From Longimicrobiales bacterium (lineage in GTDB: Bacteria; Gemmatimonadota; Gemmatimonadetes; Longimicrobiales; Gaopeijiaceae): a stretch of DNA of 64,000 nucleotides. Made by a program: the position numbers and the translations under genes. A model generated the notes under the pieces. It saw nothing but the letters and a program-made list of their open reading frames with translations. It ran no database searches and was not told where the DNA came from. Positions 4,521 to 59,120 of the stretch are shown here, piece after piece; the first letter of the stretch is position 1; every line of letters begins with the position of its first letter. The stretch spans positions 2,816,001-2,880,000 of the forward strand of contig CBDFMQ010000002.1 in the NCBI GenBank assembly GCA_965249725.1, written 5' to 3'.

Positions 4521-4621
4521 ACCTAACGGATCGGCGATTCTGATGCGCGGCTAAGATGCCGACCGCGAGCGAAGCGCGCGAGCCGGATGACTACCGCGAC
4601 TGCAGCCATCGCTTGTTAGGC
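4521..4621 (-). other. attC-like site, family 1 (101 bp)
   Basis: ACCTAAC...GTTAGGC ends; inner arms GCGATTCTGATGCG / CGACTGCAGCCATCGC; close copy at 7039. Confidence 0.85.
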
Positions 4622-4702
4622 AGAGCCGCTACCGATTCCGAGCGAGCTCCGCATCGATCCGCTCGACAAGGTCTCTGGCACGCGCATCGGCAGGGCCGAC
4701 CC

Positions 4703-6928: not shown

Positions 6929-7038
6929 CTATGAAGTCTGGAAGAAGCGATTGCGTGACGCCGCGAGAATCGACCGGCGACCCCAGAAGTGGCAAAATCG
7001 ACCCGATTCGCCCCCAACTCTCTATAAGGCAGGCCGCT

Positions 7039-7138
7039 GCCTAACGGATTGCGATTCTGCTGCGAGATCAAGATGCCGACCGCAAGCGAAGCGCGCGAGC
7101 CGGACGCCTACCGCGTCAGTAGCAATCGCTTGTTAGGG
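7039..7138 (-). other. attC-like site, family 1 (100 bp)
   Basis: GCCTAAC...GTTAGGG ends; arms GCGATT-CTGCTG-CG pair with CG(T)CAGTAG(C)AATCGC, leaving two extrahelical bases as in canonical attC. Confidence 0.88.
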
Positions 7139-8266: not shown

Positions 8267-9274
8267 TTAGAGAGCAATCTCCTGTGTCGTGAGGGAGGGG
8301 GTTGGAGGATTGATCCAGACGGCCTCCGGGAGCGGTTTGGGCTTCGGCTCACCGGAGACGAAGCGGTCGGGATGAGCGGCCCAGGCCTCGCGTAGCACGG
8401 CCTGCCTGCCGGCGATGACCTGATCTGCATTCCCGAAGTGGACCTGTTCGGGGGTCAGCATCGAGATACCACCATGGCGGTGCTCGGCGTTGTACCAGCG
8501 GAAGAACGAGCGACAGAAGGTTTTGGCCTGGCCCTGATCCTCGAACCGTCCAGGAAACGAGGGATGGTACTTCAAGGTCTTGAACTGGGCTTCGGAGAAC
8601 GGATTCTCATCCGACACCTGAGGTCGGCTCAGCGAGCGGGTCACCCCGAGATCGGCGAGGAGCTGAGCCGTGCATTGGCTCGTCATCGGAGCTCCTCGAT
8701 CCGAGTGCAAGGTCAGGACCTGGGGCTGGACGCCATGCTTCAGGCAACTCTGCTGGATCAGGCGCCCGGCCAAGGCCGAGCTCTCCCGATCCGCCACCAT
8801 CCATCCCACGATGTAGCGGCTGAAGATGTCCATGATAACGTAGAGGTAGAAGTAGCTCCACTTCCTCGGCCCCAGCAGCCGTGTGATATCCCAGGACCAG
8901 ACCTGGCCCGGGCCCGTCGCCATCAACTCGGGTTTCTGGTATTCGGGATGACTCCGCTGCGCTCGGCGCTCTCGAACTGGCACTTGGGAGGCCAGAACGC
9001 GATACATCGTACGTTCGCTGCACAGGTAGACGTCTTCGTCGAGCAGGGTCGCCACAACCTCGGCCGGGGACCGGTCCACGAATCGCTCCGAACACAGCGT
9101 GTCGAAGACCTTGTCTCGTTCCTTCTCGCTCAAGGCACGGGCTGGGGTCGGGCGGGGCTGCTGATGCCCGGTCGATGGCCTCCGACGACGATAGAACGTG
9201 GCTCGGGCGACCCTGAGCGCATCGCACGCGGGCTTTACCCCTACGTACGTGGCCAGCGCCTCGGCCGCCTTCAC
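8267..9274 (-). CDS. IS3-family transposase OrfB (rve/DDE)
   Basis: WSWDIT, DIFSRYIVGW, LHSDRG, NPFSEAQFKTLK and WYNAEHRH motifs. Confidence 0.92.
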   Translation of the reverse strand: MKAAEALATYVGVKPACDALRVARATFYRRRRPSTGHQQPRPTPARALSEKERDKVFDTLCSERFVDRSPAEVVATLLDEDVYLCSERTMYRVLASQVPVRERRAQRSHPEYQKPELMATGPGQVWSWDITRLLGPRKWSYFYLYVIMDIFSRYIVGWMVADRESSALAGRLIQQSCLKHGVQPQVLTLHSDRGAPMTSQCTAQLLADLGVTRSLSRPQVSDENPFSEAQFKTLKYHPSFPGRFEDQGQAKTFCRSFFRWYNAEHRHGGISMLTPEQVHFGNADQVIAGRQAVLREAWAAHPDRFVSGEPKPKPLPEAVWINPPTPSLTTQEIAL

Positions 9275-9496
9275 GAGTTCGTCCCGTCCTTGAGGCTCAA
9301 TCCCAGCAGCCCTGCAACTTTTCCCTGGACGTCGAGGATCAGGCGCGCCTTCTCGAGTTCCTTCTCCAGGCGAGTGTTCTCGCGCTCCAGCTTGCGCACT
9401 TTCCCCTCCAGCGGATTCCGTTCGCTCGGCTTTCGACCTCGTCTCTTCGACAGCGCTCTCAGCGACCCACTCCGCACCGCCTTGCGCCATGTCGAT
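9271..9496 (-). pseudogene. IS3 OrfA C-terminal remnant (coiled coil)
   Basis: STWRKA...KRRGRK...LERENTRLEKELEKARLILDVQGKV; N-terminal HTH missing. Confidence 0.8.
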
Positions 9497-9497
9497 C

Positions 9498-10211
9498 CCG
9501 GCACCTATGCTCCCCCCTTCCGACGGACTTGCGTGGCGCGAGGAGATCCGCGGCTTCGAAGGCAGCGTGGCCTTGGACGTCCTCCTCGAAGACCTGTGGA
9601 CTCGCGGGATTCCCGTCGTTCCAATCCACATGCTGCCGGTGCCTAGCTTCCAGGGACTTGCCGCAGTGGTAGAGGGCAGGCCCGTGGTCGTGTCGGGCTA
9701 CAGGCATGACGAACCGGGACGGGTCGCGTTTCGCATCTCGCATGAGGCTGGTCACATCGCAAAGGGGGACTGCACGTCTGATGCTCCCGTGGTCGACAAG
9801 GATGAAGAGATTCTGTCGGATGACGCGATGGAGAAGCTCGCTGACCAGTATGCAATCCGAGTGCTCGTGGGCGAAGACACGATTCCTGAGCTAGGCCGCA
9901 GTGCTTTCGACAACTTCCGGGACTTGGCTAATCGGGCCGCTGCGGTGGAGCGGGAGACAGGTGCCGACGCCGGAGCGATCATCTTCTCATGGGCACGTAC
10001 CACGGGCGACTATGCGACTGCCACCATGGCGACCAAGGCGCTGTACCTCTCAACCGGAGCCACCCGAAGTCTAAGGGCCACGGAAAGTCTCATTGCGAGG
10101 GTTGCGCCTCGATCAAGGCAGCCGCGGACGGCCAGCCGCGCCTCGGGTCACCCGAGGTGTGGCGACGCATTGGAACCGTCCATCACATCACCGAAGTCAC
10201 GCAGACGTTGA
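9498..10211 (+). pseudogene. ImmA/IrrE-family metallopeptidase, 5'-truncated
   Basis: RVAFRISHEAGH (HExxH) followed by E..AD..A; homology begins abruptly at the IS junction. Confidence 0.7.
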
Positions 10212-10784
10212 GGTCTCTACCCGAGTCCTAAGCCGATATCGGACCGCTGACCGGATCTCGGGCACGTCGAGAACCTCGCATACACGGTCCCACACCGCCG
10301 GTCTCGGCTTGCTTCGCACACCTGCCACTGCGTTGTGGTACGCAAGTAGTTCCAGGGCCTCGTCGCGCCAAAGCAGCTCGACCAACGCACGTGGATCTTG
10401 GTCAGGGTTCTCAGCGGCAGGGCGAAACGGATCGAGCGTGAGTGCCTCGACACTGCCGCGAACCAAGAGCACGCCCCACCACCCGGGGACGAGCTGGAGA
10501 GCAGCCTCGATATGCTTTGGACCAACAACAAGGGTGACGCGGTCCAACACACGACTATACGTCGCAGCCTGGGAGGCCAACCGAGTCAACCGGTCCCGAT
10601 TCGACTTGATCTCGTAGCCATGAAGAACACCGCTCACTGTCGCCAAGTCGATCCGAGCCTGGCCTTGGCAGAGCCCCAGTTCCTCGATCAATAGCGTGTC
10701 CGGGTGTGCCAACTCCTGTTGCTCCAGATACGTCCGAAGCGCCGGTCGCACCTCCGCATCTCGGATCACGTTGTGAGATGTCAA
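10197..10784 (-). CDS. sce7726-family protein (PD-(D/E)xK-like)
   Basis: RDAEVR...EELGL..ARIDLA...LHGYEIKS.RD.L.RL..Q...YSRV.D motif. Confidence 0.85.
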   Translation of the reverse strand: MTSHNVIRDAEVRPALRTYLEQQELAHPDTLLIEELGLCQGQARIDLATVSGVLHGYEIKSNRDRLTRLASQAATYSRVLDRVTLVVGPKHIEAALQLVPGWWGVLLVRGSVEALTLDPFRPAAENPDQDPRALVELLWRDEALELLAYHNAVAGVRSKPRPAVWDRVCEVLDVPEIRSAVRYRLRTRVETSTSA

Positions 10785-10802
10785 TTCAGCACGGGAGAAA
10801 AG

Positions 10803-10882
10803 ATGACCACCGGCCAGAAGGCAAGATAGCGCGTCGCAAGCTGAGTCTGCTACCGCTGGCCCAGGAGTTCGGCAACGTAAAC
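10803..10882 (+). pseudogene. IS481-family transposase N-terminal remnant
   Basis: MTTGQK/KIARRKLSLLPLAQEFGNVN, frameshifted, with no downstream DDE domain. Confidence 0.65.
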
Positions 10883-11125
10883 ACGGCGGATGTGGACGCC
10901 CCCCTGGTTGGCAAGTTTGACCTCAAATCGAGGTCGGTGGCGTTCAGGTCAGGTACTGTCGTATGTGCGACATCTTGATGCGACACTTCTGGCCGCGGGC
11001 CCGTATGGTGTTTGTGAGATCGGATCCAAATGGTGCCAGCGGAACTCGGCGGCCCTTCGCCTTGCACGGGTTTCCCGACCCGTCTTGTCGCCCGCGGGCC
11101 CTACCTTGTCCGACATCTGCACTAT

Positions 11126-11650
11126 TCAGTGGGAACCTCCGTGGCTGGTGCACGCCATCGCGCGGAAGCCATGCTGAATCATCCGTTCCGGGGGGTTGTC
11201 CAAGGCACGTAGTGCGGACGGCCGACCGCGCGACCGGACTCGGGCCCGAACGCCTCTCCGTCCTCGCATACGCCGGGACGCCGGTGCGTGGAACGGATTG
11301 CCGAAGAGCTGCGATCCCTGGACCGTCGCGCCCTCGACGCCTTGGACAAGGCCGCGCGCGTCCTCGAATCGCTCGAGACGAAGCTGCCCGTCGTACGCTG
11401 ATTCCGTCCTTGATGCCAAGGAGCCGGGCTTGCAAAATACGTAACCAAAATGGGTACTGATTCCCATGGGCATAGGCCGGCCGTAGAGGCGACGGATGTC
11501 TTCTGTGCATTGGCCGATGCGCCGCGCCGCATCATCCTCCACCAGCAGCCATAGATCGCCCCATCCGATATCTTGAGAGCCTCGATGTAGTCTGCCCGCC
11601 CGGCATCGGTCACCACCAGCGGAAACCACCCCGCGCGGAGCATCACCAGC
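11126..11650 (-). pseudogene. Fic-family protein C-terminal remnant, frameshifted
   Basis: LVMLRAGWFPLVVT...RADYIEAL..SD.GDL resembles the post-catalytic Fic region; HPF..GNGR motif absent. Confidence 0.5.
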
Positions 11651-11679
11651 GTCCGACACGGGACCAGACACGACCCGGA

Positions 11680-11712
11680 TTCCCGCTATTTGATGCGGTT
11701 TTCCCGCTATTT
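11680..11712. repeat. 12-bp direct repeat TTCCCGCTATTT x2 (possible integrase arm-type sites)
   Basis: Exact copies at 11680-11691 and 11701-11712, about 100 bp from a tRNA fragment. Confidence 0.55.
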
Positions 11713-11814
11713 CAGTACGGCGGAACCAGATATGGTCTAACGGCAAGAACGGCAGATCGTGCAGTCCTAGTTGAACTTAGGCGATTTCTTGCCGTGAATC
11801 ACATCATCCGTACT

Positions 11815-11835
11815 ACGCCTGATAAGCGTGAGGTC
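11815..11835 (+). other. tRNA-Ile(GAT) anticodon-arm fragment; probable att remnant
   Basis: ACGCCTGATAAGCGTGAGGTC matches the usual bacterial tRNA-Ile anticodon stem-loop plus variable region; no acceptor, D or T arms. Confidence 0.65.
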
Positions 11836-11907
11836 CCCGTCTCGTCTTCCCGCGCGGTTTACGCAGGAGCGATCTGATTGGCTCGCCCGATGACCCGAAG
11901 TCATGTC

Positions 11908-12063
11908 ATATAACGTTCAGGGCCTCCGAACCGGCCCACGTTTCAGTGCCTTACATCAAGGACAGATCCACAGCCGCTTCCGCTGACCGAAGCCCATTTG
12001 ATCGAGGGCCGGTTGGGCCGAGGGCCGCCTACAGCGGCCCGAGCCGGAGGCCCCGTGTTACAC
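11908..12063 (-). other. att site A, family 2 (156 bp)
   Basis: ATATAACGTTCAGGGCCTCCGAACCGGCCC...GGCCGGTTGGGCCGAGGGCCGCCTACAGCGGCCCGAGCCGGAGGCCCCGTGTTACAC. Confidence 0.9.
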
Positions 12064-12179
12064 GGCGTTTCCCCACGCGCCTCTTCAATCCGCTCCTAAT
12101 CTGGTGAGACAATCGGGAATGCGACTGTATTTGGCACTGGCGTGAACTAGCGGATTGCAATTCGGCCGCTGCACCTTCC

Positions 12180-13001
12180 TTATCCCGGCACCAACGCCAG
12201 GCACGCCCCCACCGGATCCTGAACCACCGCACATTCGTACTCCCCATCGTGCCCCCGTGTGGCCTTGATGATCTTACCCCCTCCCTCCCCTACGCGACGG
12301 AGACTTTCGGCGAGGTCGCCAACGGGGAGGAAAATCATCCAGATAGGCGGCAAACCTAGGTTCACGCCGCGCGCATGGCAGACTCCCGCCGCCGGGTTTC
12401 CGTCATCGCCGAACAAGTGGTAGTCGGCATAGGGCCCGCTTGCGTCCTCCATCTCGACGTCCTGCGCGGACCAGTGAACGACCTGTCGGTAGAAGTCACG
12501 AGTTGCCGAGGCGTCAGAGACCGTCAGGTCGAGCCAGGAGATGCGTCCCACACGCGCCGCAGCGTCGCGCGATGCGGCGCCGTCAGTTGGGAGGATCGCC
12601 TCCGCAGAAACGACGGGGATGATCCCGAACGCCGCCCCATTCGGATCGAGCAGCACCGCCCACTGACTCTTTCCAGCGTCGCCTTTGGCATGCATGAGCT
12701 CACTCCCGCCCAGATCCAGCGCTCGCCCCACACTGGCTGCGACATCGGCGACCTGAATGTGCGGCATCCATTGGAGCGGGAGGTGAGCATATTCCGCGCT
12801 GCGCGCGCCCAAGCCGATGATCGGCATGCCCAGGTTGTTCATCAGATCCTCGCGCCAAAGCGGATTCTCGCCCGTGCTGAGTACACGTGAGTAGAAGCGC
12901 ACTTCACGTTCGTGTTCGGGAACGGCGATGTCGGCGCTGAGGATTCCGCCGACGCGTGGGACAAGGGGGTCACTCATGGTTCGCGTCCTGGTTGACATCA
13001 T
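12180..13001 (-). CDS. VOC/glyoxalase-bleomycin resistance family protein (two domains); cassette 6
   Basis: Duplicated W..L...D......FY / V.D.......GG / DP.GA motifs. Confidence 0.9.
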   Translation of the reverse strand: MMSTRTRTMSDPLVPRVGGILSADIAVPEHEREVRFYSRVLSTGENPLWREDLMNNLGMPIIGLGARSAEYAHLPLQWMPHIQVADVAASVGRALDLGGSELMHAKGDAGKSQWAVLLDPNGAAFGIIPVVSAEAILPTDGAASRDAAARVGRISWLDLTVSDASATRDFYRQVVHWSAQDVEMEDASGPYADYHLFGDDGNPAAGVCHARGVNLGLPPIWMIFLPVGDLAESLRRVGEGGGKIIKATRGHDGEYECAVVQDPVGACLALVPG

Positions 13002-13316
13002 GTTGGGTCAAGGTTCATTGGCCAGATATGGACTTCAATGGGCATCGCGGCAACGATTCTCGAGGCAGGGGCCCGAGACCTTCTCGAAGAATGGTACCGG
13101 GTGAGGCCACAGTCCGTGCGGGTGATCCGGAGGCGGCCTAGCTAGGAATTGGCCTGTACCAATCCGGGTCTGATACTGTGCTCATCTCTGCGATAATCCC
13201 GCCCCATGGCGCAGACCGCACACCCGGACACGGTTCTGCGAACCTGCAAAGGGCCCCGTTGTTCCGCATTTCGGACGACCTACATGAGAAATGTCGATCT
13301 CATCTACGACAATGAC

Positions 13317-13470
13317 GTGTAACGTTCAGGGCCTCCGAACCGGCCCACATTCGTGGGTTACTTCTGCTCTCTTCCACGTACCACTTCCGTAACTCCACGT
13401 CCTCCCGGTCGTGGCCGGTTGGGTCGAGGGCCGCCTACAGCGGCCCGAGCCGGAGGCCCATTTGTTATCA
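13317..13470 (-). other. att site B, family 2 (154 bp)
   Basis: GTGTAACGTTCAGGGCCTCCG...CGGAGGCCCATTTGTTATCA. Confidence 0.9.
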
Positions 13471-13484
13471 GGCGTTGCCGTGTT

Positions 13485-13817
13485 TCACGACAGCACTAGG
13501 TAGGCGGCCACTTCGTCGTCCTCGAACTCGTAAATCCGAGCCGAGTTGGACCGCAGGATCCTCTCTGTTTCTTGGACGCTACAATTGCCGCGGCGTATCC
13601 AGATGACCTTCGGAGGGGGGCCGAAGACGAAGCTCATTTGCTGGAAATCGTTGTCCTTCGACACGATTACCAAGTTCGCCTCCCTCGCATGGTCCCAGAT
13701 CTCTGAATCCGACGCTCTTGTCATCCCCAAATCCCGAACGTGTACAGAATCAGGGAAGATGTCGGCGAGGGCGTGAGCTAAGCGTGGGGCCAGGTTCTCA
13801 TCGAAAAGGAGCTTCAC
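13485..13817 (-). CDS. DUF5615/PIN-like toxin; cassette 5
   Basis: MKLLFDENL...SD.EIW...VSKD.DF...PPKVIW. Confidence 0.9.
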   Translation of the reverse strand: MKLLFDENLAPRLAHALADIFPDSVHVRDLGMTRASDSEIWDHAREANLVIVSKDNDFQQMSFVFGPPPKVIWIRRGNCSVQETERILRSNSARIYEFEDDEVAAYLVLS

Positions 13818-13821
13818 CGCC

Positions 13822-14049
13822 TCACGCCGGAGGCAGCGCGATCAGGCGACGCTCCCGTTCTGCAGCGAACGCCAGGGCCGCCTTGATGTCCTCCCTCTCC
13901 AGATCCGGCAACTCCGCCAGGATCTCGTCCTCCGTCATTCCGGAGGCTAGGTAGTCGAGCACATCGGACACCGTGATCCGCATCCCGCGGATACACGGCT
14001 TCCCACTTCTCTTGCCTGACTCGATCGTGATTCGGTCTCGGTAGTCCAT
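13822..14049 (-). CDS. DUF433 antitoxin; cassette 5
   Basis: GKPCIRGMRITV.DVL..LASG...EEIL...DI.AAL.FAA. Confidence 0.92.
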   Translation of the reverse strand: MDYRDRITIESGKRSGKPCIRGMRITVSDVLDYLASGMTEDEILAELPDLEREDIKAALAFAAERERRLIALPPA

Positions 14050-14217
14050 GCCTCAAATACCCCCAACCTCTTCGGAAGGGTCAAGCTTGCATTGCCAACA
14101 CTGACTCGGCACACGATCGCCTGCAAGATCCTTCTGCTCGAATCGCTTCACCTGTGCGAGCCCAGAACTCGATCGGTCGCCCTCGCCCTGGCCGTTTTCT
14201 CTGCCGGAGCAATGTCC

Positions 14218-14372
14218 TGATAACGTTCTAGGGTGCCGACGTTGCCCGTCGCATGCGCCGCACGAACCCGCCGGCACCAGATGCACCAATACCGCTCACG
14301 CGCGAGCCACGTCAAAGGGCAATGTACAGCGTAGCGAACGAAGTGAGCGCAGCCGGCACCCGGTTGTTATCG
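14218..14372 (-). other. att site C, sequence-divergent variant (155 bp)
   Basis: TGATAACGTTCTAGGGTGCCG ACGTTGCCC...GGGCAATGT..side arm..CGGCACCCGGTTGTTATCG; same length and geometry as family 2. Confidence 0.85.
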
Positions 14373-14463
14373 GAAGTGACCGTGCTGGCCACCCTTGGTC
14401 GTGCTGAGCGTAGGCGCCGACCCTATCCCTTGCTAGCACATAGCAGTACTGCTATTCTCCATC

Positions 14464-14836
14464 ATGTCCTCGCCGGCCCGGAAACCGCTCCACTTCGTGG
14501 CCTCAAGCATCAAGGATCTCCGCGGTCTGCCGGAGGAGATCAAGGATGTGTTCGGGGCCGCCTTGCCTTGACGCTCAATACGGGGACCACCCCGCAGGAG
14601 CGAAACCATTCGGCGAGGGAGTGCCACGGGAGGTCATGAAACTGGTAGAGGACTACGACGGCAATACGTACCGCGCCGCCTACACGGTCGCGCTGAAGAG
14701 CGCGGTCTACGTACTCCATGTCTTCACCAAGAAGTCGAAGCGGGGAATCGGCACGCCACGTCCGGACAAGGATGCGATTCGGTCAAGACTCCAGGCGGCG
14801 AGGGAACACCACGCGAGGTACTACGAGAAGAGTTAA
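14464..14836 (+). pseudogene. RelE/Gp49-like toxin, +1 frameshift near 14565; cassette 4 (inverted)
   Basis: MSSPARKPLHFVASSIKDLRGLPEEIKDVFGAAL / LDAQYG..P..AKPF...YRAAYTV...VYVLHVF.KKS. Confidence 0.8.
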
Positions 14837-14861
14837 AGGCAGTTCTAGAGGAGAAGATGCA

Positions 14862-15200
14862 ATGAGCGACGATCTGAAGATTCACGACAGCACGGGCAAC
14901 GTCTTCGCCGACATCGGCGCCCGCGACGCCGAGGAGCTGCTCGCAAAGGCGGAACTCGCGCGTCTCATCCGACACGAGCTCACACGGCGCGGACTCACGC
15001 AGGCCGTGGCTGCAGACCTCCTCGGCATGAAGCAGCCTGATGTCTCGGACCTGGTACGCGGGAAGCTGTCCCGCTTCAGCCTATCGCGGCTTGAGAGACT
15101 GCTGAACGCTCTCGACCTTGAGATTCGAATCCAGGTCGGGCCGAAGCCTGCCGACAAGGCTCAGGCCGGCATCACTGTTGAGCTCGTCGAGTCATTCTGA
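14862..15200 (+). CDS. XRE/HigA-like HTH antitoxin; cassette 4
   Basis: STGNVFADIG...KAEL...LTQ..AA..LG..QPDVSDL.RGKL..FS..RL. Confidence 0.9.
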   Translation: MSDDLKIHDSTGNVFADIGARDAEELLAKAELARLIRHELTRRGLTQAVAADLLGMKQPDVSDLVRGKLSRFSLSRLERLLNALDLEIRIQVGPKPADKAQAGITVELVESF

Positions 15201-15239
15201 CCTGCGGCCTCGGCCCTCCACATAGTGCACGGTCATTTC

Positions 15240-15393
15240 CGATAACGTTCAGGGCCTCCGAACCGGCCCTCACTTCGGTTCTTGGTTCTGCTCCAACTCA
15301 GCTATCAATCCCGTCGACCAATCGCCCCGGTCGCGGGCCGGTTGGGTCGAGGGCCGCCTATAGCGGCCCGAGCCGGAGACCCCTCTGTTAGAC
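15240..15393 (-). other. att site D, family 2 (154 bp)
   Basis: CGATAACGTTCAGGGCCTCCG...CGGAGACCCCTCTGTTAGAC. Confidence 0.9.
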
Positions 15394-15412
15394 GATGCCG
15401 TTCCACACTCGT

Positions 15413-15718
15413 CTACTTCGTCGTCGTTCCTGCTTCAGCGTGTAGCTTGATCCCAAGAGCCTTGACCACCTTCAGGATTGTGTCAAAGCCCGGGCTACGC
15501 TCGCCGGACAACGCCTTGTACAGGCTCTCTCGAGACAGTCCAGCGTCTCTGGCCACCTGAGTCATTCCCTTGGCCCGGGCGATGTCTCCAAGGGCCTTGG
15601 CCACAAATGCGGCGTCACCATCCGCCTCCTCGAGGCACGCCTCTAGGTACGCAGCCATTTCTTCTGGCGTCCTGAGATGTTCAGCAACGTCGTATCGGGT
15701 CGTCTGAGTCGTTCCCAT
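15413..15718 (-). CDS. Addiction module antidote (HI1420-like HTH); cassette 3
   Basis: YDVAEHL...AYL...ALGDIARAKGM.QVA..AGLSRESLYKALS..PGFDTILKV. Confidence 0.92.
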   Translation of the reverse strand: MGTTQTTRYDVAEHLRTPEEMAAYLEACLEEADGDAAFVAKALGDIARAKGMTQVARDAGLSRESLYKALSGERSPGFDTILKVVKALGIKLHAEAGTTTK

Positions 15719-15724
15719 GCTCTT

Positions 15725-16021
15725 TTACTCCGATAGATCGCGAGCGAGGCGTAGCGCAGCCTTGATGTCCTTGGTCTGCGAACTCTTATCCCCTCCCGCA
15801 AGCAAGATGATCAGCTCCCGCCCATACCGTTTGAAATAGACTCGGTATCCGGGTCCGTAATCGATTCGTAGTTCCGAGACACCCTCACCAACGGGCCTGA
15901 CATCCCCTGGATTGCCGACAGCAAGCCGCTCAATCCGGACCTGAACGCGGGCTCTCGCCCGCATATCTCGGAGGTCGTCTAGCCACCGCGCGAAGAACTC
16001 AGTCTTACGGATCTCGATCAT
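15725..16021 (-). CDS. Addiction module killer (HI1419/RelE-like toxin); cassette 3
   Basis: F..WL..LRD..ARAR...RI.RL..GNPGD..PVGEGVSELRIDYGPGYRVYF...LLAGGDKSSQ. Confidence 0.92.
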   Translation of the reverse strand: MIEIRKTEFFARWLDDLRDMRARARVQVRIERLAVGNPGDVRPVGEGVSELRIDYGPGYRVYFKRYGRELIILLAGGDKSSQTKDIKAALRLARDLSE

Positions 16022-16028
16022 GTCCAAG

Positions 16029-16046
16029 TGTAGCCACGTGGCTACA
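16029..16046. promoter_or_regulatory. Perfect 18-bp palindrome TGTAGCCACGTGGCTACA, probable TA operator
   Basis: Lies directly upstream of the toxin start. Confidence 0.65.
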
Positions 16047-16090
16047 GTCGGTCAATCCAATAGCTGCGGTCGCGGTCGGTGTCGATTGCC

Positions 16091-16303
16091 TCACCAGTAC
16101 CACCCGGCCTCACGCGGATGAACATACGACCTCGCCTCACACTGCCCACGTTTGATCGCAGCTTGCGAACGCCGACGCTCCCGCCGGTTCAAGCGATTCC
16201 TGTACCACCGCGGAGGCACACACAGCCACTCGCATCCCCGCGAGCTAGCCTTCCATCCCTTGATCCGGCCGCCCGGCAGGATCTTCCACCTTCTCTGAGC
16301 CAT
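16091..16303 (-). CDS. Small Arg/Trp-rich hypothetical protein; cassette 3
   Basis: RBS AGGGAGG before ATG 16303; 70 aa ending in WYW. Confidence 0.55.
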   Translation of the reverse strand: MAQRRWKILPGGRIKGWKASSRGCEWLCVPPRWYRNRLNRRERRRSQAAIKRGQCEARSYVHPREAGWYW

Positions 16304-16495
16304 TTCGCCCTCCCTGTAGAGTGCTACAGGAAGGGCGCCCTTTCCTTCAGAATCATACGTGCCATCTGTCAAACCTCCTTTACCAGCGTTCTTGCCCCGT
16401 CGACAACATCAAGCGCACGCCTGCCGCCTACGTGCCGCAATGCGCTCCTCCAGCCAGGTCGCGTAGCTCTCCGCAGATCTTGTTTCAAGGCCAGG

Positions 16496-16520
16496 TAGTT
16501 ATTACCGTTGTTATAACTAT
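16496..16520. promoter_or_regulatory. AT-rich imperfect palindrome TAGTTATTACCGTTGTTATAACTAT, probable AbrB-type operator/promoter
   Basis: Located 20 bp upstream of the antitoxin ATG. Confidence 0.5.
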
Positions 16521-16539
16521 CACAAACGAGGACTCGCTC

Positions 16540-16767
16540 ATGCCCAAGCAAACCACGATCCGCGCTATCGGCAACTCGGCCGGTACGACCATCCCAAAGC
16601 CTATGCTCGAGCGTTATCACTTGGGCGAAGGCGACGCCGTCCATTTGGTTGAGACCGAGGAAGGCATCCTGATCACTCCCTTCGATCCAGACTTCGATGA
16701 GGCCATGGAGATCTACGCAGAGGGTGCCAAGCGCTATCGCAATGCCATGCGTGAACTCGCCAAGTGA
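16540..16767 (+). CDS. AbrB/MazE-family antitoxin; cassette 3
   Basis: TTIRAIGNSAG.TIPK..L....L.EGD...GI.ITPFDP...YRNAMRELAK. Confidence 0.9.
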   Translation: MPKQTTIRAIGNSAGTTIPKPMLERYHLGEGDAVHLVETEEGILITPFDPDFDEAMEIYAEGAKRYRNAMRELAK

Positions 16768-17153
16768 CCGAGCCACGTTGGCTTTCTCAAGTACAAGTCC
16801 TCTCCATCCATTCTGATCAGATCCAAGCCCACGGCGGATCCCTTGGGCTCCGGGACAGGGGACTCCTGGAGTCCGCCCTCGAACGCCCTCGCAATCGCTT
16901 CCATTACGATCCCGAGGCCGACCTCCCTTCTCTCGCGGCCGCGTACGGGTTTGGACTTTCAAGCAATCATCCCTTCGTGGACGGCAACAAGCGCATCGCC
17001 TTTCAAGCCATGTATCTCTTCCTCGGTTTGAACGGCTTCCGCATTGATGCCTCTGAAGAAGAGGTCGCCACTACTATCCTTTCTCTGGCGCGCGGTGACC
17101 TCGACGAACCCACCCTGGCTGACTGGCTCCGTCACAACATCTCTCCTCGCTGA
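16764..17153 (+). CDS. doc: Death-on-curing (Doc/Fic) toxin; cassette 3
   Basis: GLRD.GLLESAL.RP and NHPFVDGNKR motifs; GTGA overlap with the antitoxin. Confidence 0.92.
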   Translation: MTEPRWLSQVQVLSIHSDQIQAHGGSLGLRDRGLLESALERPRNRFHYDPEADLPSLAAAYGFGLSSNHPFVDGNKRIAFQAMYLFLGLNGFRIDASEEEVATTILSLARGDLDEPTLADWLRHNISPR

Positions 17154-17179
17154 CTCAGCCCCTTCATTCGAGGCATTGC

Positions 17180-17333
17180 GGCTAACGTTCAGGGCCTCCG
17201 AACCGGCCCCACCTTCCGTTCTCTACTCTACGGCAGATCCGCTGCCGCCTTCGTTGACCGAAGACCTCCCGGTCGCGGCCGGTTGGGTCGAGGGCCGCTT
17301 ACAGCGGCCCGAGTCGGAGGCCCCGTGTTATGT
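17180..17333 (-). other. att site E, family 2 (154 bp)
   Basis: GGCTAACGTTCAGGGCCTCCG...CGGAGGCCCCGTGTTATGT. Confidence 0.9.
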
Positions 17334-17422
17334 GACGTCGTGACCACGCAAGACCGTTCCCTTCTCTGCCAACGGCGACACGAACGCGCGCGGTCCGCGC
17401 GAGCACCACACCCGCACCCCTC

Positions 17423-17881
17423 CTATCGTGAAACCTCAAGCCACTGGTCCATGAACTCCGCAAAGTCTCCTGGCATGTCTGGACGGGACGCCACCCATGC
17501 CTCCCGAGCATATGGGAGCCGCAGAGTCTCCGCGAGCAAGAGGTCCAAGGCGGTCGGAGGAAGGACGTCATTGTCTACCTGACGCCACACGAGTTCCGCT
17601 TGACGGAAGAGGGCCTCCAGCCTAAAGGCGACAAGCATTCGCTCCTCAGTGCTGAAGTCGTCACGGAGCGCTCCGCTACGTATCCGACTGTACAAGGCAA
17701 GCCACTCTCGGTCTCCCGCCATCGTCGTGACCAAGTCGGTCGTGAAGATCGCGACGTCGCGGTATGCCTCGGCCCGGGCTACTGCCGTGTTCTGTCGTAT
17801 CTCTAGCCCCACGAAGACTAGAGAAAAAGTCACACCGAGTATGCCGATCAATTCCTTCAGAGCCGTGCGTTTCGCCATCAT
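17423..17881 (-). CDS. Hypothetical protein with N-terminal TM helix; cassette 2
   Basis: IGILGV..SLVFVG.EIRQNT N-terminus; only gene between sites E and F. Confidence 0.8.
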   Translation of the reverse strand: MMAKRTALKELIGILGVTFSLVFVGLEIRQNTAVARAEAYRDVAIFTTDLVTTMAGDREWLALYSRIRSGALRDDFSTEERMLVAFRLEALFRQAELVWRQVDNDVLPPTALDLLLAETLRLPYAREAWVASRPDMPGDFAEFMDQWLEVSR

Positions 17882-18029
17882 GGATCACTCCCGACAAGAT
17901 CGGCCAGAGTCGATGAGCCACGTTCCTTGCGTCGACCCCGTAAGTTGAACCGCGCCATCCATGCACGCCGACTCCATCTTCTTATCCCTTGCCCTTCCAT
18001 TCCACAACTATGCTTGCCTGAGCGATTGC

Positions 18030-18182
18030 ACATAACGTTCAGGGCCTCCGAACCGGCCCCACATTCGTTTCTTGCTTCTGCTCCAATCTTCTATCACACA
18101 GTTCGACCGAAGTCCAACCGGTTGCGGCCGGTTGGGTCGAGGGCCGCCTTCAGCGGCCCGAGCCGGAGGCCCAGTGTTATAT
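18030..18182 (-). other. att site F, family 2 (153 bp)
   Basis: ACATAACGTTCAGGGCCTCCG...CGGAGGCCCAGTGTTATAT. Confidence 0.9.
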
Positions 18183-18241
18183 GATGTGACGCTGGTCAAC
18201 TAAGTACTGCTGTTGATACTTCGGCGGGACGGGTCCTAGAG

Positions 18242-20911
18242 TCAGTTGGGCACCCGCTCCTTCAACTCCTCGAAGAAGTTGTCGACGAGAATCAATTGGC
18301 TGTCGAGATCAAGCGATCTCATCAGCATCAGGCGTTGGTCGTCCGGGCTGATGTCATAACCCGCGCTGCCGTTTCCGATCTGGTAGTCGGTCGAAGAGAA
18401 TAGGACTCGCTGCTGTCCTACAGAAAATGATGGATCGACGTTGATTTCGGCGACCATCTGTGTCCCTCCGACCGACTCACCCTGGTAGAACAACTCTCTG
18501 CCGCTGTGTGCCCACACGGACTCATCGCCGTAGGTAGTGGAGACCTGCCACAGGCCCGCGTCGACGTCGGGGAATGGACGCACGTACACCTGAGCCCGAT
18601 CCTCGGGGTTCGCTCTCCAGGTATACGAGAGCCAGCGCCCGTCCGGGGAAAGCGAGATCTCGGTCGCCCGCACTCCATCCGTGACCAACGGAGTCGCTAG
18701 ACTGTCCAATTCTGGCCGTATCGCGAAGATGTCCGCGTTGGCAACCAGGCCGTCAGATTCGACGAATACGAGCCACGTGCCATCGGGCGTGTACGCGAAT
18801 TCCTGAATGGGCCGCTCCCTGTCCAGGACGAGTTCAGCCGAGCCACTCCCGTCTGCTCTCTTTCTCCACAGATCGCGTTGCCCGGCCCGATTCGACACGA
18901 ACGTGACGAACTCCGCATCCCTCGACCACCGAGGCCTGAGATTCTCAGTCCCCTCGAATGTGAGTCGGGACAGCGGGCCTGAGTCCAATTGCTTGACATA
19001 CAAGTCCGCAGTCCCGTCAGCGTCGATGATCGACGCGACGAGCCTCGTGCCGCCCGGGGAAATGGCAAGACTGACCATGAAGGCGTCGGTGGGAAACGCC
19101 CAACCGGGATCAACTTCTTGGACAGTCCCGTCTCGGTCGACCCAGACAGGGGTGTGGAGGCCTCCGCCCACACCCGCCCGGTACACAAGCCTGTCCGACT
19201 CTGACACGTCGAAGTACGGTAGTCCTTGGCTTTGCAGCACTCCCTCTACGACTGGTTCCACAGCACCCATGAGTTCCAGGTTCGTCACGTCGAAGAGTGC
19301 CGCCAAGAGAGTCCCCTCGGTCGGGTTCACGAAGAGCAGATGTCCGGTGGAGACGTAGCGCGGGGCCTGGCCCGGCGTGAGGTCTTTGGTTTCGCCGGTC
19401 TCCAGGTCCAAGGCTTGGATTCGCTGGCCAGAAGCAGACCCCCGCACCTGATACAGGAGGCTACTGCTACCCGGCAGCACCTGCGCGAAGCTGTGGGAAA
19501 CGTCTCCGGCTGCGGTATCCACTCGGGTAACGACCTCGGACGGCCCACCGGTCGCTGGTACGCGGCTCAGTCCTCGCGCCGAGTCTCTGTAGTAGACCCA
19601 ATCACCCTCCCGACTCCACGTTGGGCAGCAGCTGGCAGATTCGGTGAGGATGCGCACTGCCCCCCCATCAAGGGGGACGACCCTAACCGAACCGCCGGAA
19701 GTATGGAAAGCCACCTCCCTATCATCCGGAGAAATAGTCGGGGCGTATGCATTCCCTGCATTCCGGATCGGAGTGGCGCTCAACGCGTCCCACCGCCTCA
19801 TCATCAGTGCGAGTTGCCCCTCCTCATCCACGCCCTTGTACACCATGAATGATCCATCGGCCGAAAGGTCTAGGCTTCCAAACGTGGACGCAAAGGACTG
19901 GCCTACTCCCATCAGCACTGAGACGCGTGTGACCGACTCTGGAGGCTCGGGACGGAGAAGTGACCAGCCCTGACTGAGCGCGAGCACCGCCGCCAGAGAG
20001 GCGAAAGCCATTGTCGACCGCTTCCACGGACCTGCATCTGAAGCGCCGACTCCGACGACCGCCTCGCCATATCGGAAGTGTTCATCTCCCAGCGCCGTCG
20101 CGAACTCCTGAGACGACTTGAACCGATCCGCAGGGAGCTTCTCCAACGCCTTCCGCAGCGCAGCGTCAACATTCGCCGGGATCGAAGCCCGCTTCTCGGT
20201 GGCCGAGATTGGTCGGGAGGAAATGATCTGGCCCAAGACGGCCTGAGCGGTTTTCCCCACGTATGGCGGGTCGCCCGTCAGCATCTCATATAGGACGGAG
20301 CCCAAGGCGTAGGTGTCCGTCGAAGCACCCACGAACTGATCGCCCGTTGCCTGCTCGGGGCTCATATAGAACGGGGTCCCCAGACTCAGGCCGGTCTCCG
20401 TCAGACGCCCTCCACCAGCCGCTCCAACAGCCAGCGCGATCCCAAAGTCGGCGATTAGTGGTCGCCCTTCGTGGAGCAAGATGTTGGCTGGCTTGATGTC
20501 TCGGTGGATGATCTTGTGGCGGTGAGCGTAGTCGAGCGCCTCTGCTAGGTCCGTGGTAATCTTCACCGCTTCGTCCACGGGGAGTTGATGCTCACGGTCC
20601 AGCCTGTCCCGTAACGACTCTCCCTCGATGTAGGGCATCACGTAGTAGAGGAAGCTGTCGGCTTCGCCCGAGTCGTGGAGCGGCAGGATGTTCGGGTGGG
20701 TCAGGTTGGCCGTAGTTTCGATCTCGGCCAGGAATCGCTCAGCGCCTACCACCGCTGCCAACTCGGGCTTCAGGACCTTCAAGGCCACGTTGCGGTTGTG
20801 CTTCAGGTCCTTGGCGAGATAGACCGTAGCCATCCCACCCTCGCCGAGCTCACGCTCGATGACGTACCGATTCTCAAGGGCTCCGTTCAGGCGAGAGACT
20901 GAATCGGACAC
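18242..20911 (-). CDS. Membrane Ser/Thr kinase with TolB-like (PD40) beta-propeller; cassette 1
   Basis: GEGGMATV, HRDIKPAN, DFG and GTPFYMSPE motifs; TM helix; repeated SPDG/WS..G motifs. Confidence 0.95.
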   Translation of the reverse strand: MSDSVSRLNGALENRYVIERELGEGGMATVYLAKDLKHNRNVALKVLKPELAAVVGAERFLAEIETTANLTHPNILPLHDSGEADSFLYYVMPYIEGESLRDRLDREHQLPVDEAVKITTDLAEALDYAHRHKIIHRDIKPANILLHEGRPLIADFGIALAVGAAGGGRLTETGLSLGTPFYMSPEQATGDQFVGASTDTYALGSVLYEMLTGDPPYVGKTAQAVLGQIISSRPISATEKRASIPANVDAALRKALEKLPADRFKSSQEFATALGDEHFRYGEAVVGVGASDAGPWKRSTMAFASLAAVLALSQGWSLLRPEPPESVTRVSVLMGVGQSFASTFGSLDLSADGSFMVYKGVDEEGQLALMMRRWDALSATPIRNAGNAYAPTISPDDREVAFHTSGGSVRVVPLDGGAVRILTESASCCPTWSREGDWVYYRDSARGLSRVPATGGPSEVVTRVDTAAGDVSHSFAQVLPGSSSLLYQVRGSASGQRIQALDLETGETKDLTPGQAPRYVSTGHLLFVNPTEGTLLAALFDVTNLELMGAVEPVVEGVLQSQGLPYFDVSESDRLVYRAGVGGGLHTPVWVDRDGTVQEVDPGWAFPTDAFMVSLAISPGGTRLVASIIDADGTADLYVKQLDSGPLSRLTFEGTENLRPRWSRDAEFVTFVSNRAGQRDLWRKRADGSGSAELVLDRERPIQEFAYTPDGTWLVFVESDGLVANADIFAIRPELDSLATPLVTDGVRATEISLSPDGRWLSYTWRANPEDRAQVYVRPFPDVDAGLWQVSTTYGDESVWAHSGRELFYQGESVGGTQMVAEINVDPSFSVGQQRVLFSSTDYQIGNGSAGYDISPDDQRLMLMRSLDLDSQLILVDNFFEELKERVPN

Positions 20912-20965
20912 AGGCGTACTCCGGCACTATCAGGCGGCGGGCAGCATCGCGTGGGGGGCGTGGAT

Positions 20966-20994
20966 AACGTGAGGGGCAGGAGCGGGCGGGTCAA
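20966..20994 (-). promoter_or_regulatory. Possible sigma70 promoter inside cassette 1 (TTGACC-17 bp-CACGTT)
   Basis: Consensus-like hexamers with 17-bp spacing, 55 bp upstream of the kinase start. Confidence 0.35.
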
Positions 20995-21060
20995 CAAGAG
21001 GCTTGGCCCCGGGCCCTGACTGCCGTACGCCCTGGGCGATGCTGGTTCACAAGTGAACCG

Positions 21061-21197
21061 CCCGAAGTCATATCATATAACGTTTGTATCTCCGACGTAC
21101 TACAAGTCCCCGTTTGGGATTCGGACCCGAGACGCGCGGGTAATGATCCGGTAGCCGGAGATTACCGAACTAGTTCGCGTAAGGGCCTTATAGTTCG
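21061..21197 (-). other. attI-like array head site
   Basis: Core ATATAAC (21075-21081) complements the end of site F. It is followed by a GTATCTCCG/CGGAGATTAC inverted pair and palindrome CGAACTAGTTCG (21166-21177) but has no terminal GTTA box; it sits between cassette 1 and the recombinase. Confidence 0.65.
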
Positions 21198-21426
21198 TGG
21201 TCAGATCTTGACGAACAACTACACCGGGCCGGCCTGCGCGATGAGATCGCTGGGGGGCAGTGGGCCGATCCGGGCTCTCCGGCGGACATCCCTACTCCGC
21301 AGGATCGTGCCAATATGCTGATCGTGGCTCCAGGACGCCAACCAGCCCCTCGTGGCGTCGTCTAACGCTTCGGTCCAGGACCGATTCCGCCATGGCTCCG
21401 CCCGTCGTGTCTTGCGACCGTGGACC

Positions 21427-21951
21427 ATGGACTCCGACTCACCCCGAAACACGCCGTCCAGCCCGCAGCCGACCCAGCTACCGTCTGGGAGTGACATCGA
21501 GGTGACTGTCCGGGCGGGCGCAATCGTGCTACGCGGGCCCTACCGGGAGGATGTTGTCTCGCTGATCCGCTCCCTCCCCGGACGGCGCTGGGACCGCCGC
21601 GAACGCGTTTGGCGCCTACCGGATACATCACTGGTCAGAGCCGCTCTATGGGATAAACTGGGTATCCGTCTCGACCCGGAGCCCCGCGCCGACCGAAAGA
21701 CCCACTTGCGGTCCGACGAGCGGGAGGGCTTATCACTCCGCTTCGATGAAGAGATGCGGCTCCGCGGCTACGCTCCGCGCACTCGACGCGCGTATGGAGG
21801 CCACATCCGCCGCCTTCTCTCCGATGTCGGTGACGCGGAGGACCTGCCGGAAGCACTGCGCGAGCACGTACTCCGCCGGGTCGCCACCGACAAGGTATCT
21901 CGCTCCTACCACAACCAACTGATCAGCGCGCTTCGCTCTCACGAGGTCTGA
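21427..21951 (+). pseudogene. Tyrosine recombinase/integrase N-terminal part (HARP-like domain + SAM-like integrase domain); catalytic domain deleted
   Basis: PYREDVVSLIRSLPGRRWD...VWRLP, then EEMRLRGYAPRTRRAY..HIRR and SRSYHNQLISALR; stops before the R-H-R-Y domain. Confidence 0.8.
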
Positions 21952-58952: not shown

Positions 58953-59120
58953 CAGAGCCCCTCGGGGGCCATCTCCTCCAGCTGCTTGATGAGCGTTCGG
59001 TGAGACCGGATCAGGTATCCGCCGACCGCCACACCAGCCACGAGGTTGGCCGCGAGCACGCTCCACCAAGGAAGAACGGTCTCTTTCAATCAGCTCGGTG
59101 CCGCAGCACCACCTCAACAC

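Follow-up and report, generated by a model that had tools for sequence, protein, structure and literature searches.

The locus described here raises the question of whether six long sites with TAAC...GTTA ends, which lie between gene units next to an atypical recombinase gene, form a cassette array, and, if so, whether this array belongs to the integrons as they are currently defined. We refer to the whole stretch of DNA that was analysed, 64,000 nucleotides from a Longimicrobiales bacterium, as the window.

Six Branched Sites without Extrahelical Bases

The six TAAC...GTTA sites of the first-pass annotation are all present, with a length of 147-150 nt each, or 153-156 nt when three flanking bases per side are included. 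The top (cassette) strand of the array is the minus strand of the window. Sites without extrahelical bases (EHBs) and, for contrast, the two canonical attC sites are as follows.

11911-12060, minus strand: site A, EHB-less branched cassette site; arm 12015-12044
13320-13467, minus strand: site B, EHB-less branched; arm 13421-13450
14221-14369, minus strand: site C, of a different sequence family, geometry as in the other sites; arm 14326-14353; 86.8 bits
15243-15390, minus strand: site D, one base changed in the outer stem; arm 15344-15373
17183-17330, minus strand: site E, EHB-less branched; arm 17285-17314
18033-18179, minus strand: site F, EHB-less branched; arm 18134-18163
4524-4618, minus strand: canonical EHB-type attC outside the branched array; 49 bits
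7042-7135, minus strand: canonical EHB-type attC outside the branched array; 56 bits

Five sites had been proposed to share an outer and an inner stem; the inner stem indeed recurs in all five, but the outer stem is perfect in only four, the exception being D. Likewise, the outer stem ends 14 nt from one end as described, while the distance to the other end is 12 nt in A, C, E and F but 13 nt in B and D. The one-sided GGGCCGC-loop-GCGGCCC arm is found in the five same-family sites, and site C, although unrelated in sequence, keeps the geometry with a one-sided arm of 28 nt. Arms in sites A-F measure 28-30 nt and lie on the side where attC carries its EHBs; no EHB register could be found in any of the six. 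Folding was better than chance in part of the set, with z-scores of -3.6 to -4.7 for A, B, E and F and -2.5 for D, but not for site C (z +0.3), whose minimum-energy fold differs from the three-way junction.

A new covariance model, trained on sites of other genomes only, recovers all six sites at 68-87 bits. A stand-in model built from 32 canonical sites gives no match to A-F at E<=1, whereas it scores 49-56 bits on the two canonical attC sites of the window and at most 21 bits on arm sites elsewhere; Rfam gave no match at the gathering score across the window. Both sides of the stem have changed in 19 of 27 pairs, a value that none of 500 shuffles reaches, and the L stem is continuous and covarying. 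Within the arms, a sheared G-A motif occurs on the bottom strand in 57 of 70 distinct arms and on the top strand in none (shuffles, mean 0.8), with a closing pair that is C-G in 49, T-A in six and G-C in two. A GA hairpin, located deeper, is also present in 12 of 67 canonical sites, and may therefore be a general folding aid.

The Locus Is an Array of Exchangeable Cassettes

The six sites delimit six cassettes.

12180-13001, minus strand: cassette 6 gene, glyoxalase/VOC-fold protein (PF18029, PF00903)
13485-14049, minus strand: cassette 5 genes, DUF433 and DUF5615/PIN pair, toxin-antitoxin-like
14546-15200, plus strand: cassette 4 gene pair, Gp49/RelE-like toxin with HTH_37 antitoxin, oriented antisense to the array
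15413-17153, both strands: cassette 3, two toxin-antitoxin pairs (minus strand, Gp49-like and HI1420 antidote; plus strand, AbrB/MazE and Fic/Doc)
17423-17881, minus strand: cassette 2 gene, 152-aa protein without a Pfam family
18242-20911, minus strand: cassette 1 gene, 889-aa Ser/Thr kinase with PD40 repeats
21078-21170, minus strand: attI-like insertion point with an L'-like half site; seventh boundary at 21078-21081

The end pairs of the cassettes agree at 29 of 36 bases, the best of 720 pairings, with complete agreement outside the core for cassette 1 (6/6) and the weakest for cassette 3 (3/6). Cassette 3 is possibly two cassettes merged through loss of a site; a sequencing joint from 18179 to 16472 is present in two public runs. 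In relatives, cassette ends match at 5.2 of 6 bases (100 cassettes) versus 3.0 for the flanks of the site itself. The locus combines RYYYAAC/GTTRRRY-type cores with complementary cassette ends, as integrons do. Sites within an array all share the same orientation, and 79 of 107 cassettes have their longest ORF on the top strand. Cassettes have turned over recently in the relatives, where identical ones were found at separate positions and in separate arrays, and a homologue of cassette 5 sits between two sites of the array in genome G397. Public runs yielded no exact excision joint among the 15 of 56 joints listed; the sides of joints 11937-18153, 18185-21076 and 4622-7038 are short, and other site copies could be their source. 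Altogether, the locus is a real array of exchangeable gene cassettes.

The first cassette begins beside the recombinase gene in the window as well as in relatives, and the attI-like point where arrays start adjoins the I2-less gene, whichever way the two are oriented. A CG lies 12-14 nt 5' of GTTA in 14 of 18 attI-like candidates. We infer that the point at the array head plays the role of attI, with the crossover falling inside 21078-21081.

An I2-less Relative of IntI Adjoins the Array

21427-21951, plus strand: 5' fragment of an I2-less IntI-like recombinase gene; HARP-like and SAM_4 domains, no catalytic domain

The first-pass annotation had this adjacent recombinase serving the array, but the window copy stops before its catalytic domain and is unable to do so now. 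The truncation also appears in contigs from four of four public runs. A paralogue at C3:2292762-2293400 is broken too, while the canonical IntI of the genome is intact. With neither copy of the enzyme intact, the array in this genome is now probably frozen or served in trans.

Intact homologues are tyrosine recombinases that resemble IntI but lack the I2 insertion; most of them have a HARP-like domain at the N terminus. TIGR02249 splits into two stretches on these proteins (191-205 bits; cut-off 265), and the spacing from K to HxxR is 62-75 aa compared with 107-112 in IntI, the test for the I2 insertion giving a motif distance of 66 versus 107 aa. The catalytic columns R, K, H, R, H and Y are conserved, and VchIntIA is the top Foldseek match in a full-length fold search. 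A full-length alignment scan of collections responded to generic recombinase motifs, and the matches listed were mostly unrelated enzymes. The N-terminal domain gives a weak score with Pfam HARP (PF07443; 19.7 bits, cut-off 25); its nearest sequence relatives are SNF2 proteins bearing HARP, and its structural matches are likewise weak (SMARCAL1 HARP as the top Foldseek row, E 0.034; MotA, Z 5.1, and UvsW, Z 4.5, as the top VIA rows). Many I2-less relatives have no visible array, and some adjoin IS91-like genes.

Quick trees place IntI nested among the I2-less enzymes. Because the AU test does not reject monophyly of the I2-less set (p 0.115), we do not claim that these enzymes are ancestral.

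Site Class and Enzyme Class Go Together

Co-occurrence of the sites with the recombinase family, which the first-pass annotation proposed to look for, was found in at least 15 related genomes, where I2-less enzymes stand at the head of arrays built from such sites; the genomes compared are kin, and such counts are therefore non-independent. With a first classifier, 71 of 78 sites near IntI carried an EHB at position 9, and the 115 sites near I2-less enzymes were called as 93 straight, 13 ties, seven EHB and two neither. Neither this classifier nor a branch parser based on minimum-energy folds was free of noise, their 5' versus 3' arm calls being unreliable, and anchored parsing took their place. 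A stricter finder gave 110 arm sites and one EHB call in 24 I2-less regions, compared with no arm sites and 76 EHB sites in 57 canonical IntI regions. On inspection, the arm calls at L045 and L049 were chance matches, and G519, with its one "EHB" call, has an arm-type site at that position. The match of site to enzyme holds within genomes carrying both enzymes (G000, G345 and G397). In a search for arrays that used only the site model, five of 18 heads had an intact HARP-bearing I2-less enzyme and none had IntI; at the remaining 13, the fetched region held no recombinase or the contig edge was reached. Arrays following the I2-less enzyme contain up to 20 or more sites. Two IntI-rich families without an I2-less homologue yielded no arm sites (0/32 and 0/11). 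A plasmid search returned only one match, and two Bacteroidota genomes, as well as one of two Patescibacteria genomes, gave no match to the arm-site model.

These data bear on the possibility that the sites are an odd attC variant used in trans by the canonical IntI of the genome, the I2-less recombinase being a passenger or a separate mobile element. IntI is the sole intact candidate in this genome, canonical attC sites in the same orientation lie 5 kb past the array, and IntI1 efficiently recombines some EHB-deleted attC sites, deletion not always being a block (PMC5027507); moreover, I2-less recombinases near attC have been judged not to be IntI by Cury et al. (PMC4889954). However, the lack of arm sites in IntI regions and in IntI-only families, the attI-like array start beside the I2-less gene in either orientation, and the I2-less identity of all five recombinases at blindly picked heads make this explanation unlikely. 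A distinct, structure-conserved site class tied to a recombinase family is well supported by enzyme linkage, covariation and the site model.

A Proposed Mechanism

We consider it quite likely that the array belongs to a second integron class, which recombines folded bottom strands without I2 or EHBs; this would apparently be a second kind of gene-capture system, undescribed so far. An I2-less, IntI-related tyrosine recombinase would insert cassettes into an attI-like site beside its own gene, and that this enzyme carries out the recombination is very likely. The bottom strand of the terminal site, a likely substrate in its folded form, would present an R box (TAAC/GTTA), an uneven spacer (3-5 nt versus 5-8 nt) and then a straight L stem of 8-10 bp without extrahelical bases. 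In this lineage a three-way junction would follow, with the inner stem flush on the L stem and an arm of 23-40 nt on the R''-L'' side, closed by purine-purine steps (GA/GA or GNA/GNA) on the bottom strand only. A single strand exchange at the GTT core would produce a junction resolved by replication.

In the IntI system, EHBs and I2 serve to mark the strand and to bend the monomer bound at L or block it. Here the arm could do both: its purine-purine steps are confined to the bottom strand, and so could mark it. The chances that the arm has this role are about even. The data are consistent with the earlier proposal that the arm replaces EHBs, but arm-less, EHB-less sites also exist (L112, L119, L040 and L132), and those at L112 and L119 adjoin related enzymes of other lineages. 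Arm sites adjoin HARP-less enzymes at L138, L143 and L144, and a HARP enzyme occurs with flush sites at L119. Since HARP and arm are uncoupled in this way, we down-weighted the idea that HARP reads the arm, and recognition of the junction by the HARP-like domain is rather doubtful; a scheme in which the arm replaces the EHB and HARP reads the arm is probably too simple.

Alternatively, the I2-less enzyme may be cognate but act on double-stranded DNA through two classical exchanges at the short core, the stems and arm having an RNA-level function as terminators or stabilisers, or being relics. The enzyme lacks a domain considered necessary for single-strand recombination (PMC7790495), and IntI itself retains an ancestral double-strand activity (PMC4792948). 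Against this, the crossover has just four invariant bases, and the L'-R' spacers vary in length and sequence inside a single array, a poor fit to two strand exchanges. The stems also covary freely, and with the GA motifs on the bottom strand and the longest ORFs mostly on the top, most transcripts would bear the non-folding copy. We regard this route as very unlikely. The reading of the repeats as REP-like or other scattered palindromes unrelated to cassette turnover, suggested by their GC-rich stems with mini-hairpins and by the genome's three other copies, which are partial or isolated, is largely refuted and extremely improbable, given only nine clustered matches in 4.2 Mb (six of them in the array), matching cassette ends, uniform orientation and duplicate cassettes at separate positions.

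Implications for Integron Origin

A literature search found no earlier description of an I2-less, EHB-less cassette class. Integron finders demand an I2 domain and a site model trained on EHBs, so the whole class of arrays would be overlooked or classed as orphans, along with cargo such as the kinases, toxin-antitoxin pairs and VOC proteins seen here. The I2 helix and EHBs are regarded as the defining, co-evolved pair behind integrons, and their joint origin as a chicken-and-egg problem with unknown intermediates (PMC4792948, PMC7790495). A natural cassette system without either bears on the origin of integrons and opens this question to tests in which intact enzymes are paired with defined sites. 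Tentatively, one may envisage a class of integrons, with these arrays as living members, that takes up cassettes in the form of folded single strands without I2 or EHBs, through three-way junctions closed by sheared G-A pairs, that occurs in Gemmatimonadota and as far afield as Patescibacteria, Spirochaetota and Bacteroidota, and that is the sister or stem of IntI; cassette recombination on single strands would then be older than the I2 helix. A recombinase that reads three-way junctions would, if real, be a new tool, and sheared G-A motifs in DNA would gain one of their few natural roles.

Comparison with Known Systems

The N-terminal domain resembles, with weak scores, the fold of SMARCAL1 HARP, the T4 UvsW N-terminal domain and the MotA C-terminal domain, and a HARP-type domain has been described as junction-specific in DNA binding (PMC4666394). 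Unlike in these proteins, the HARP-like domain is fused to a recombinase, and it is missing from some array-linked enzymes. We also compared the enzymes with archaeal XerA (NF040815), IS91-associated recombinases and the "Integron-like" simple tyrosine recombinases (Smyshlyaev et al. 2021, PMC8138268). In contrast to IS91-associated recombinases, none of the array-linked enzymes examined has an IS91 gene next to it, and the insertion-less members of the "Integron-like" subgroup have no cassette sites ascribed to them in the available part of that study (PMC8138268). Cassette clusters without IntI recall CALINs and the recombinases of Cury et al. 2016, who describe four I2-less recombinases beside attC, place them between IntI and Xer, count fewer than three attC beside each and conclude that they are not IntI (PMC4889954). 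Compared with those four by their description there, the present enzymes have long arrays and another site geometry.

The closest likeness is to integrons (VchIntIA/VCR, IntI1/attC-aadA7), which share the TAAC/GTTA core, chimeric sites with outer ends from different cassettes, an attI-like point adjoining a tyrosine recombinase with SAM_4 and catalytic domains, arrays rich in toxin-antitoxin pairs with divergent as well as co-oriented layouts, and long sites with large branched terminal structures (PMC2727003, PMC5371416). In contrast to integrons, the window sites are missed by the canonical-site model, the enzyme is about 41 aa shorter, without the I2/intI_Cterm insertion and usually with an N-terminal HARP-like domain, and the sites are EHB-free with an uneven spacer, and they branch right where the L stem ends (12-13 nt after TAAC) instead of within the terminal structure.

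Sites A-F and their cassettes

The six TAAC...GTTA sites described in the first-pass annotation, with the claimed stems and a one-sided side hairpin of ~28-30 nt (the arm), are present, the exception being one changed base in site D. The cassette strand is the minus strand of the window, which also holds two canonical sites with extrahelical bases (EHBs).

Sites in the window (start positions)
4524: canonical EHB-type site, belonging to the IntI set of the source genome
7042: canonical EHB-type site, belonging to the IntI set of the source genome
11911: site A, TAAC...GTTA, 147-150 nt class
13320: site B, TAAC...GTTA, 147-150 nt class
14221: site C, TAAC...GTTA, 147-150 nt class
15243: site D, TAAC...GTTA, 147-150 nt class
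17183: site E, TAAC...GTTA, 147-150 nt class
18033: site F, TAAC...GTTA, 147-150 nt class

Folding z-scores show stability beyond chance for A, B, E and F (-3.6 to -4.7) and D (-2.5) and not for C (+0.3). A search of the window against Rfam gave zero matches. With the array read along the minus strand, the hexamer past each GTTA agrees with the one ahead of the next TAAC at 29 of 36 positions in total, and the observed order of cassette ends is the best among 720 pairings. This end-matching test requires a seventh boundary at 21078-21081, which makes the 889-aa kinase gene cassette 1 and 21078-21081 attI-like. Sites A-F delimit gene cassettes, whose cargo comprises a kinase, a hypothetical protein, a glyoxalase and four toxin-antitoxin-like pairs across three cassettes. 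Joints of a site end to 16472 in two public runs, with the intervening letters undefined, suggest that the Doc pair is able to be a separate cassette. As in integrons, the site body moves with the upstream cassette, which makes the plus strand the bottom strand and puts the arm on the R''-L'' side, the same side as the EHBs of attC (PMC2727003, in excerpt).

The segment 21078-21170 differs from most attI candidates in that a complement of its L'-like half lies upstream, and part of it is found twice within an array of another genome (G397); the segment may have been a cassette site that decayed and was taken over as attI. The branched array is parted from the canonical sites by an insertion sequence with an rve transposase, covered at very high depth by public runs, and by gene fragments (8267-9631 and 9650-11900); the start of this stretch duplicates attI-side sequence. 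Elsewhere, 59113-59820 contains low-complexity coding repeats of 15 and 27 nt, rich in Lys/Ala/Pro and histone-like by eye.

Site anatomy

In 101 of the 108 sites parsed, the last pair of the outer stem falls 12-13 nt past TAAC; the arm is mostly 23-40 nt long (mode 27-30), and opposite it the inner stem sits flush. In the model alignment 85% of cells pair, compared with 29-43% in slid controls, and 19 of 27 pairs vary on both sides, a figure reached in 0 of 500 shuffles and inflated by relatedness. On the bottom strand the arm reads as closing pair, GA or GNA, stem, loop, stem, GA or GNA, closing partner and exactly one base. Subtype arrays and flush sites (lacking both EHB and arm) excluded, this pattern occurs in 57 of 70 distinct arms, never on the top strand, and in shuffles at a mean of 0.8 and at most 4. 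The arm is closed by C-G in 49, T-A in 6 and G-C in 2. Tandem sheared G-A pairs in CGAG blocks, like GGA zippers, are well known as stable motifs of DNA (excerpts of PMC10085684 and PMC11014236), and we infer that they would form in these arms. Among attI candidates, CG stands 12-14 nt ahead of GTTA in 14 of 18, from printed positions.

The recombinase at the array head

The array had been proposed to be served by its adjacent recombinase; the copy in the window cannot do so now: the plus-strand fragment 21427-21951 codes for a HARP-like and a SAM_4 domain and then ends, before any catalytic part, which is also absent downstream. The break is identical in contigs of four of four public runs, one of which may be the source sample. 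There are 49 longer homologues, the best 75-76% identical and 385-423 aa in length, and named relatives of the recombinase come from Gemmatimonadota. In the four homologues tested, TIGR02249 matched in two pieces at 191-205 bits, against a cut-off of 265. The spacing from catalytic K to HxxR is 62-75 aa in these enzymes lacking I2, the IntI-specific insertion, versus 107-112 in IntI; the best Foldseek match of the recombinase model was VchIntIA. The N-terminal domain is HARP-like by its sequence relatives, with weak fold matches to SMARCAL1 HARP (E 0.034), MotA (Z 5.1) and UvsW (Z 4.5). The same domain is joined to exonuclease VII large subunits in two proteins (P0116, P0130).

Site class tracks enzyme class

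A close homologue was found in 19 of 401 genomes of the phylum (21 matches; four candidates scored per genome). Outside the source genome, nine of 20 matches head arrays, two are followed by a gene that we take, by eye and from its motif, to be IS91-like, and nine lie on short contigs or had no array seen. Genomes G058, G060 and G002 come from a separate search, and G511, G519, G531 and G539 from the array-head test below. Arrays are mostly downstream and co-oriented; the layout is divergent in the window, G025, three metagenome loci and probably G325.

A first classifier counted only sites having a 9-of-10 cassette partner. In 21 IntI regions a position-9 EHB was present in 71 of 78 sites (G in 64); the 115 sites of 19 I2-less regions gave 93 straight, 13 tied, seven EHB and two neither, and on inspection the seven EHB calls were five arm and two flush sites. 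A stricter finder returned 110 arm, 45 other, five flush and one EHB site in 24 I2-less regions selected for array presence, and 0 arm, 76 EHB, 15 other and three flush sites in 57 IntI regions. As the first-pass annotation had advised, we built a new covariance model and searched genomes with it. Built from 41 sites of other genomes, it gave each of sites A-F a score of 68-87 bits and IntI arrays 18 bits or less; a model of 32 canonical sites, a stand-in for that of IntegronFinder, detected none of A-F. In a blind test on 111 genomes from the order, the arm model had matches in 19. Of 18 array heads retrieved, five had an intact I2-less, HARP-bearing enzyme and none an IntI, the recombinase being absent in range or the contig edge reached in the other 13; four of the five enzymes lay in genomes that the protein search had missed. 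Two IntI-rich families, counted in different genome draws, gave IntI in 27/49 genomes, homologue in 0/166 and arm sites in 0/32 (f4), and 14/27, 0/94 and 0/11, respectively (f5). Site class tracks enzyme class; because the genomes are kin, we attach no p-value to this linkage. Three loci (L021, L263, L264) show long L'-R' spacers of 8-9 nt in canonical attC of the family studied here.

Cassette turnover

In relatives, cassette ends agree at 5.2 of 6 positions (n = 100 cassettes) versus 3.0 for a site's own flanks. Cassettes 100% identical occupy three positions of one array, two arrays within one genome share a 99.7% identical cassette, and window cassettes 5, 4 and 3 have homologues in array regions of other genomes.

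Scattered through one array (L219, G317:C1, 4341-14154) are ~14 members of a 182-bp cassette family with 84-100% identity, which looks like a family of small peptides or RNAs that diversified while its cassettes were shuffled. A plasmid of Chryseobacterium oryzae, a named, cultured host (L305, NZ_CP094530.1, 14932-16720), carries an I2-less-type integrase and an attI-like point, together with a single cassette for a VOC gene; an IS91 element interrupts the site of this cassette.

Proposed mechanism

The substrate would be a folded single strand undergoing one strand exchange, for which variable spacers and free covariation argue. In excerpts of the attC literature, sites with EHBs deleted lose strand selectivity (PMC5027507) and EHBs with I2 prevent a second exchange (PMC4792948). 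Folding of the arm on the bottom strand only, at the L-box end, could give strand selectivity and block a second exchange. The earlier proposal that the arm replaces EHBs is at most consistent with the data; against it, flush EHB-less sites exist beside related enzymes (L112, L119, L040, L132). Arm sites also occur beside HARP-less enzymes (L138, L143, L144), a named Patescibacteria genome holds arm sites and a HARP-less enzyme, and 12 of 67 canonical sites place a similar hairpin deeper; the firm class trait is thus 'no I2, no EHB', and the arm is a widespread elaboration within the class. Some EHB-less sites are recombinable by IntI1 (excerpt of PMC5027507), so cross-talk is possible.

Other elements in the source genome

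The source genome (G000), in which the window spans C3:2816001-2880000, has a second, internally broken I2-less copy (G000:C3:2292762-2293400), followed by eight EHB-less sites of 136-143 nt and a more complex subtype (G000:C3:2281722-2293400), and an intact IntI (335 bits) with its own EHB sites of 90-94 nt. Sites of this multi-branched subtype are also found behind the HARP-less enzymes of G405 and G002. A canonical EHB-type cassette (window 4524-7135) carries a 741-aa kinase-TPR gene; counting cassette 1, each site class holds one large Ser/Thr kinase gene as a cassette, and kinase paralogues are numerous in the genome. Three further places, C3:1934693-1938018, C3:651750-651890 and C2:265350-266310, contain arm sites that are decayed or stand alone and an attI-like point that lacks a recombinase; one of the sites is truncated immediately past the arm.

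Relation to known systems

In quick trees rooted on XerC and XerD of the source genome, IntI forms one clade (support 100) among I2-less enzymes. The backbone of these trees is weak, and a topology with all I2-less enzymes in one clade stays acceptable (p 0.115, 35 rows). Group labels were assigned by us: no array was seen at P0003 or L191, and two of eight 'IS91' rows were inspected. In published excerpts, recombinases near attC without intI_Cterm were judged not IntI (Cury et al., PMC4889954), an integron-like subgroup has the insertion incompletely conserved (Smyshlyaev et al., PMC8138268), archaeal integrons were defined by the IntI domain (10.1101/2022.02.06.479319), and the I2/EHB origin is called a chicken-egg paradox lacking intermediates (Escudero et al., PMC4792948, PMC7790495); PMC5371416, PMC8618304 and PMC4666394 were also consulted, and an excerpt of PMC3108266 contained nothing bearing on the system. 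Searches on integron terms, covering papers outside subscription journals, listed no description of it. Repeats of a similar kind may also flank genes in Leptospira and Bacteroidota. This is a real, coherent and apparently undescribed system, probably a second class of integron-like system, and we see the window array as a relic of this putative class with a dead enzyme. The class would share the way of working of integrons and departs from them in two defining features.
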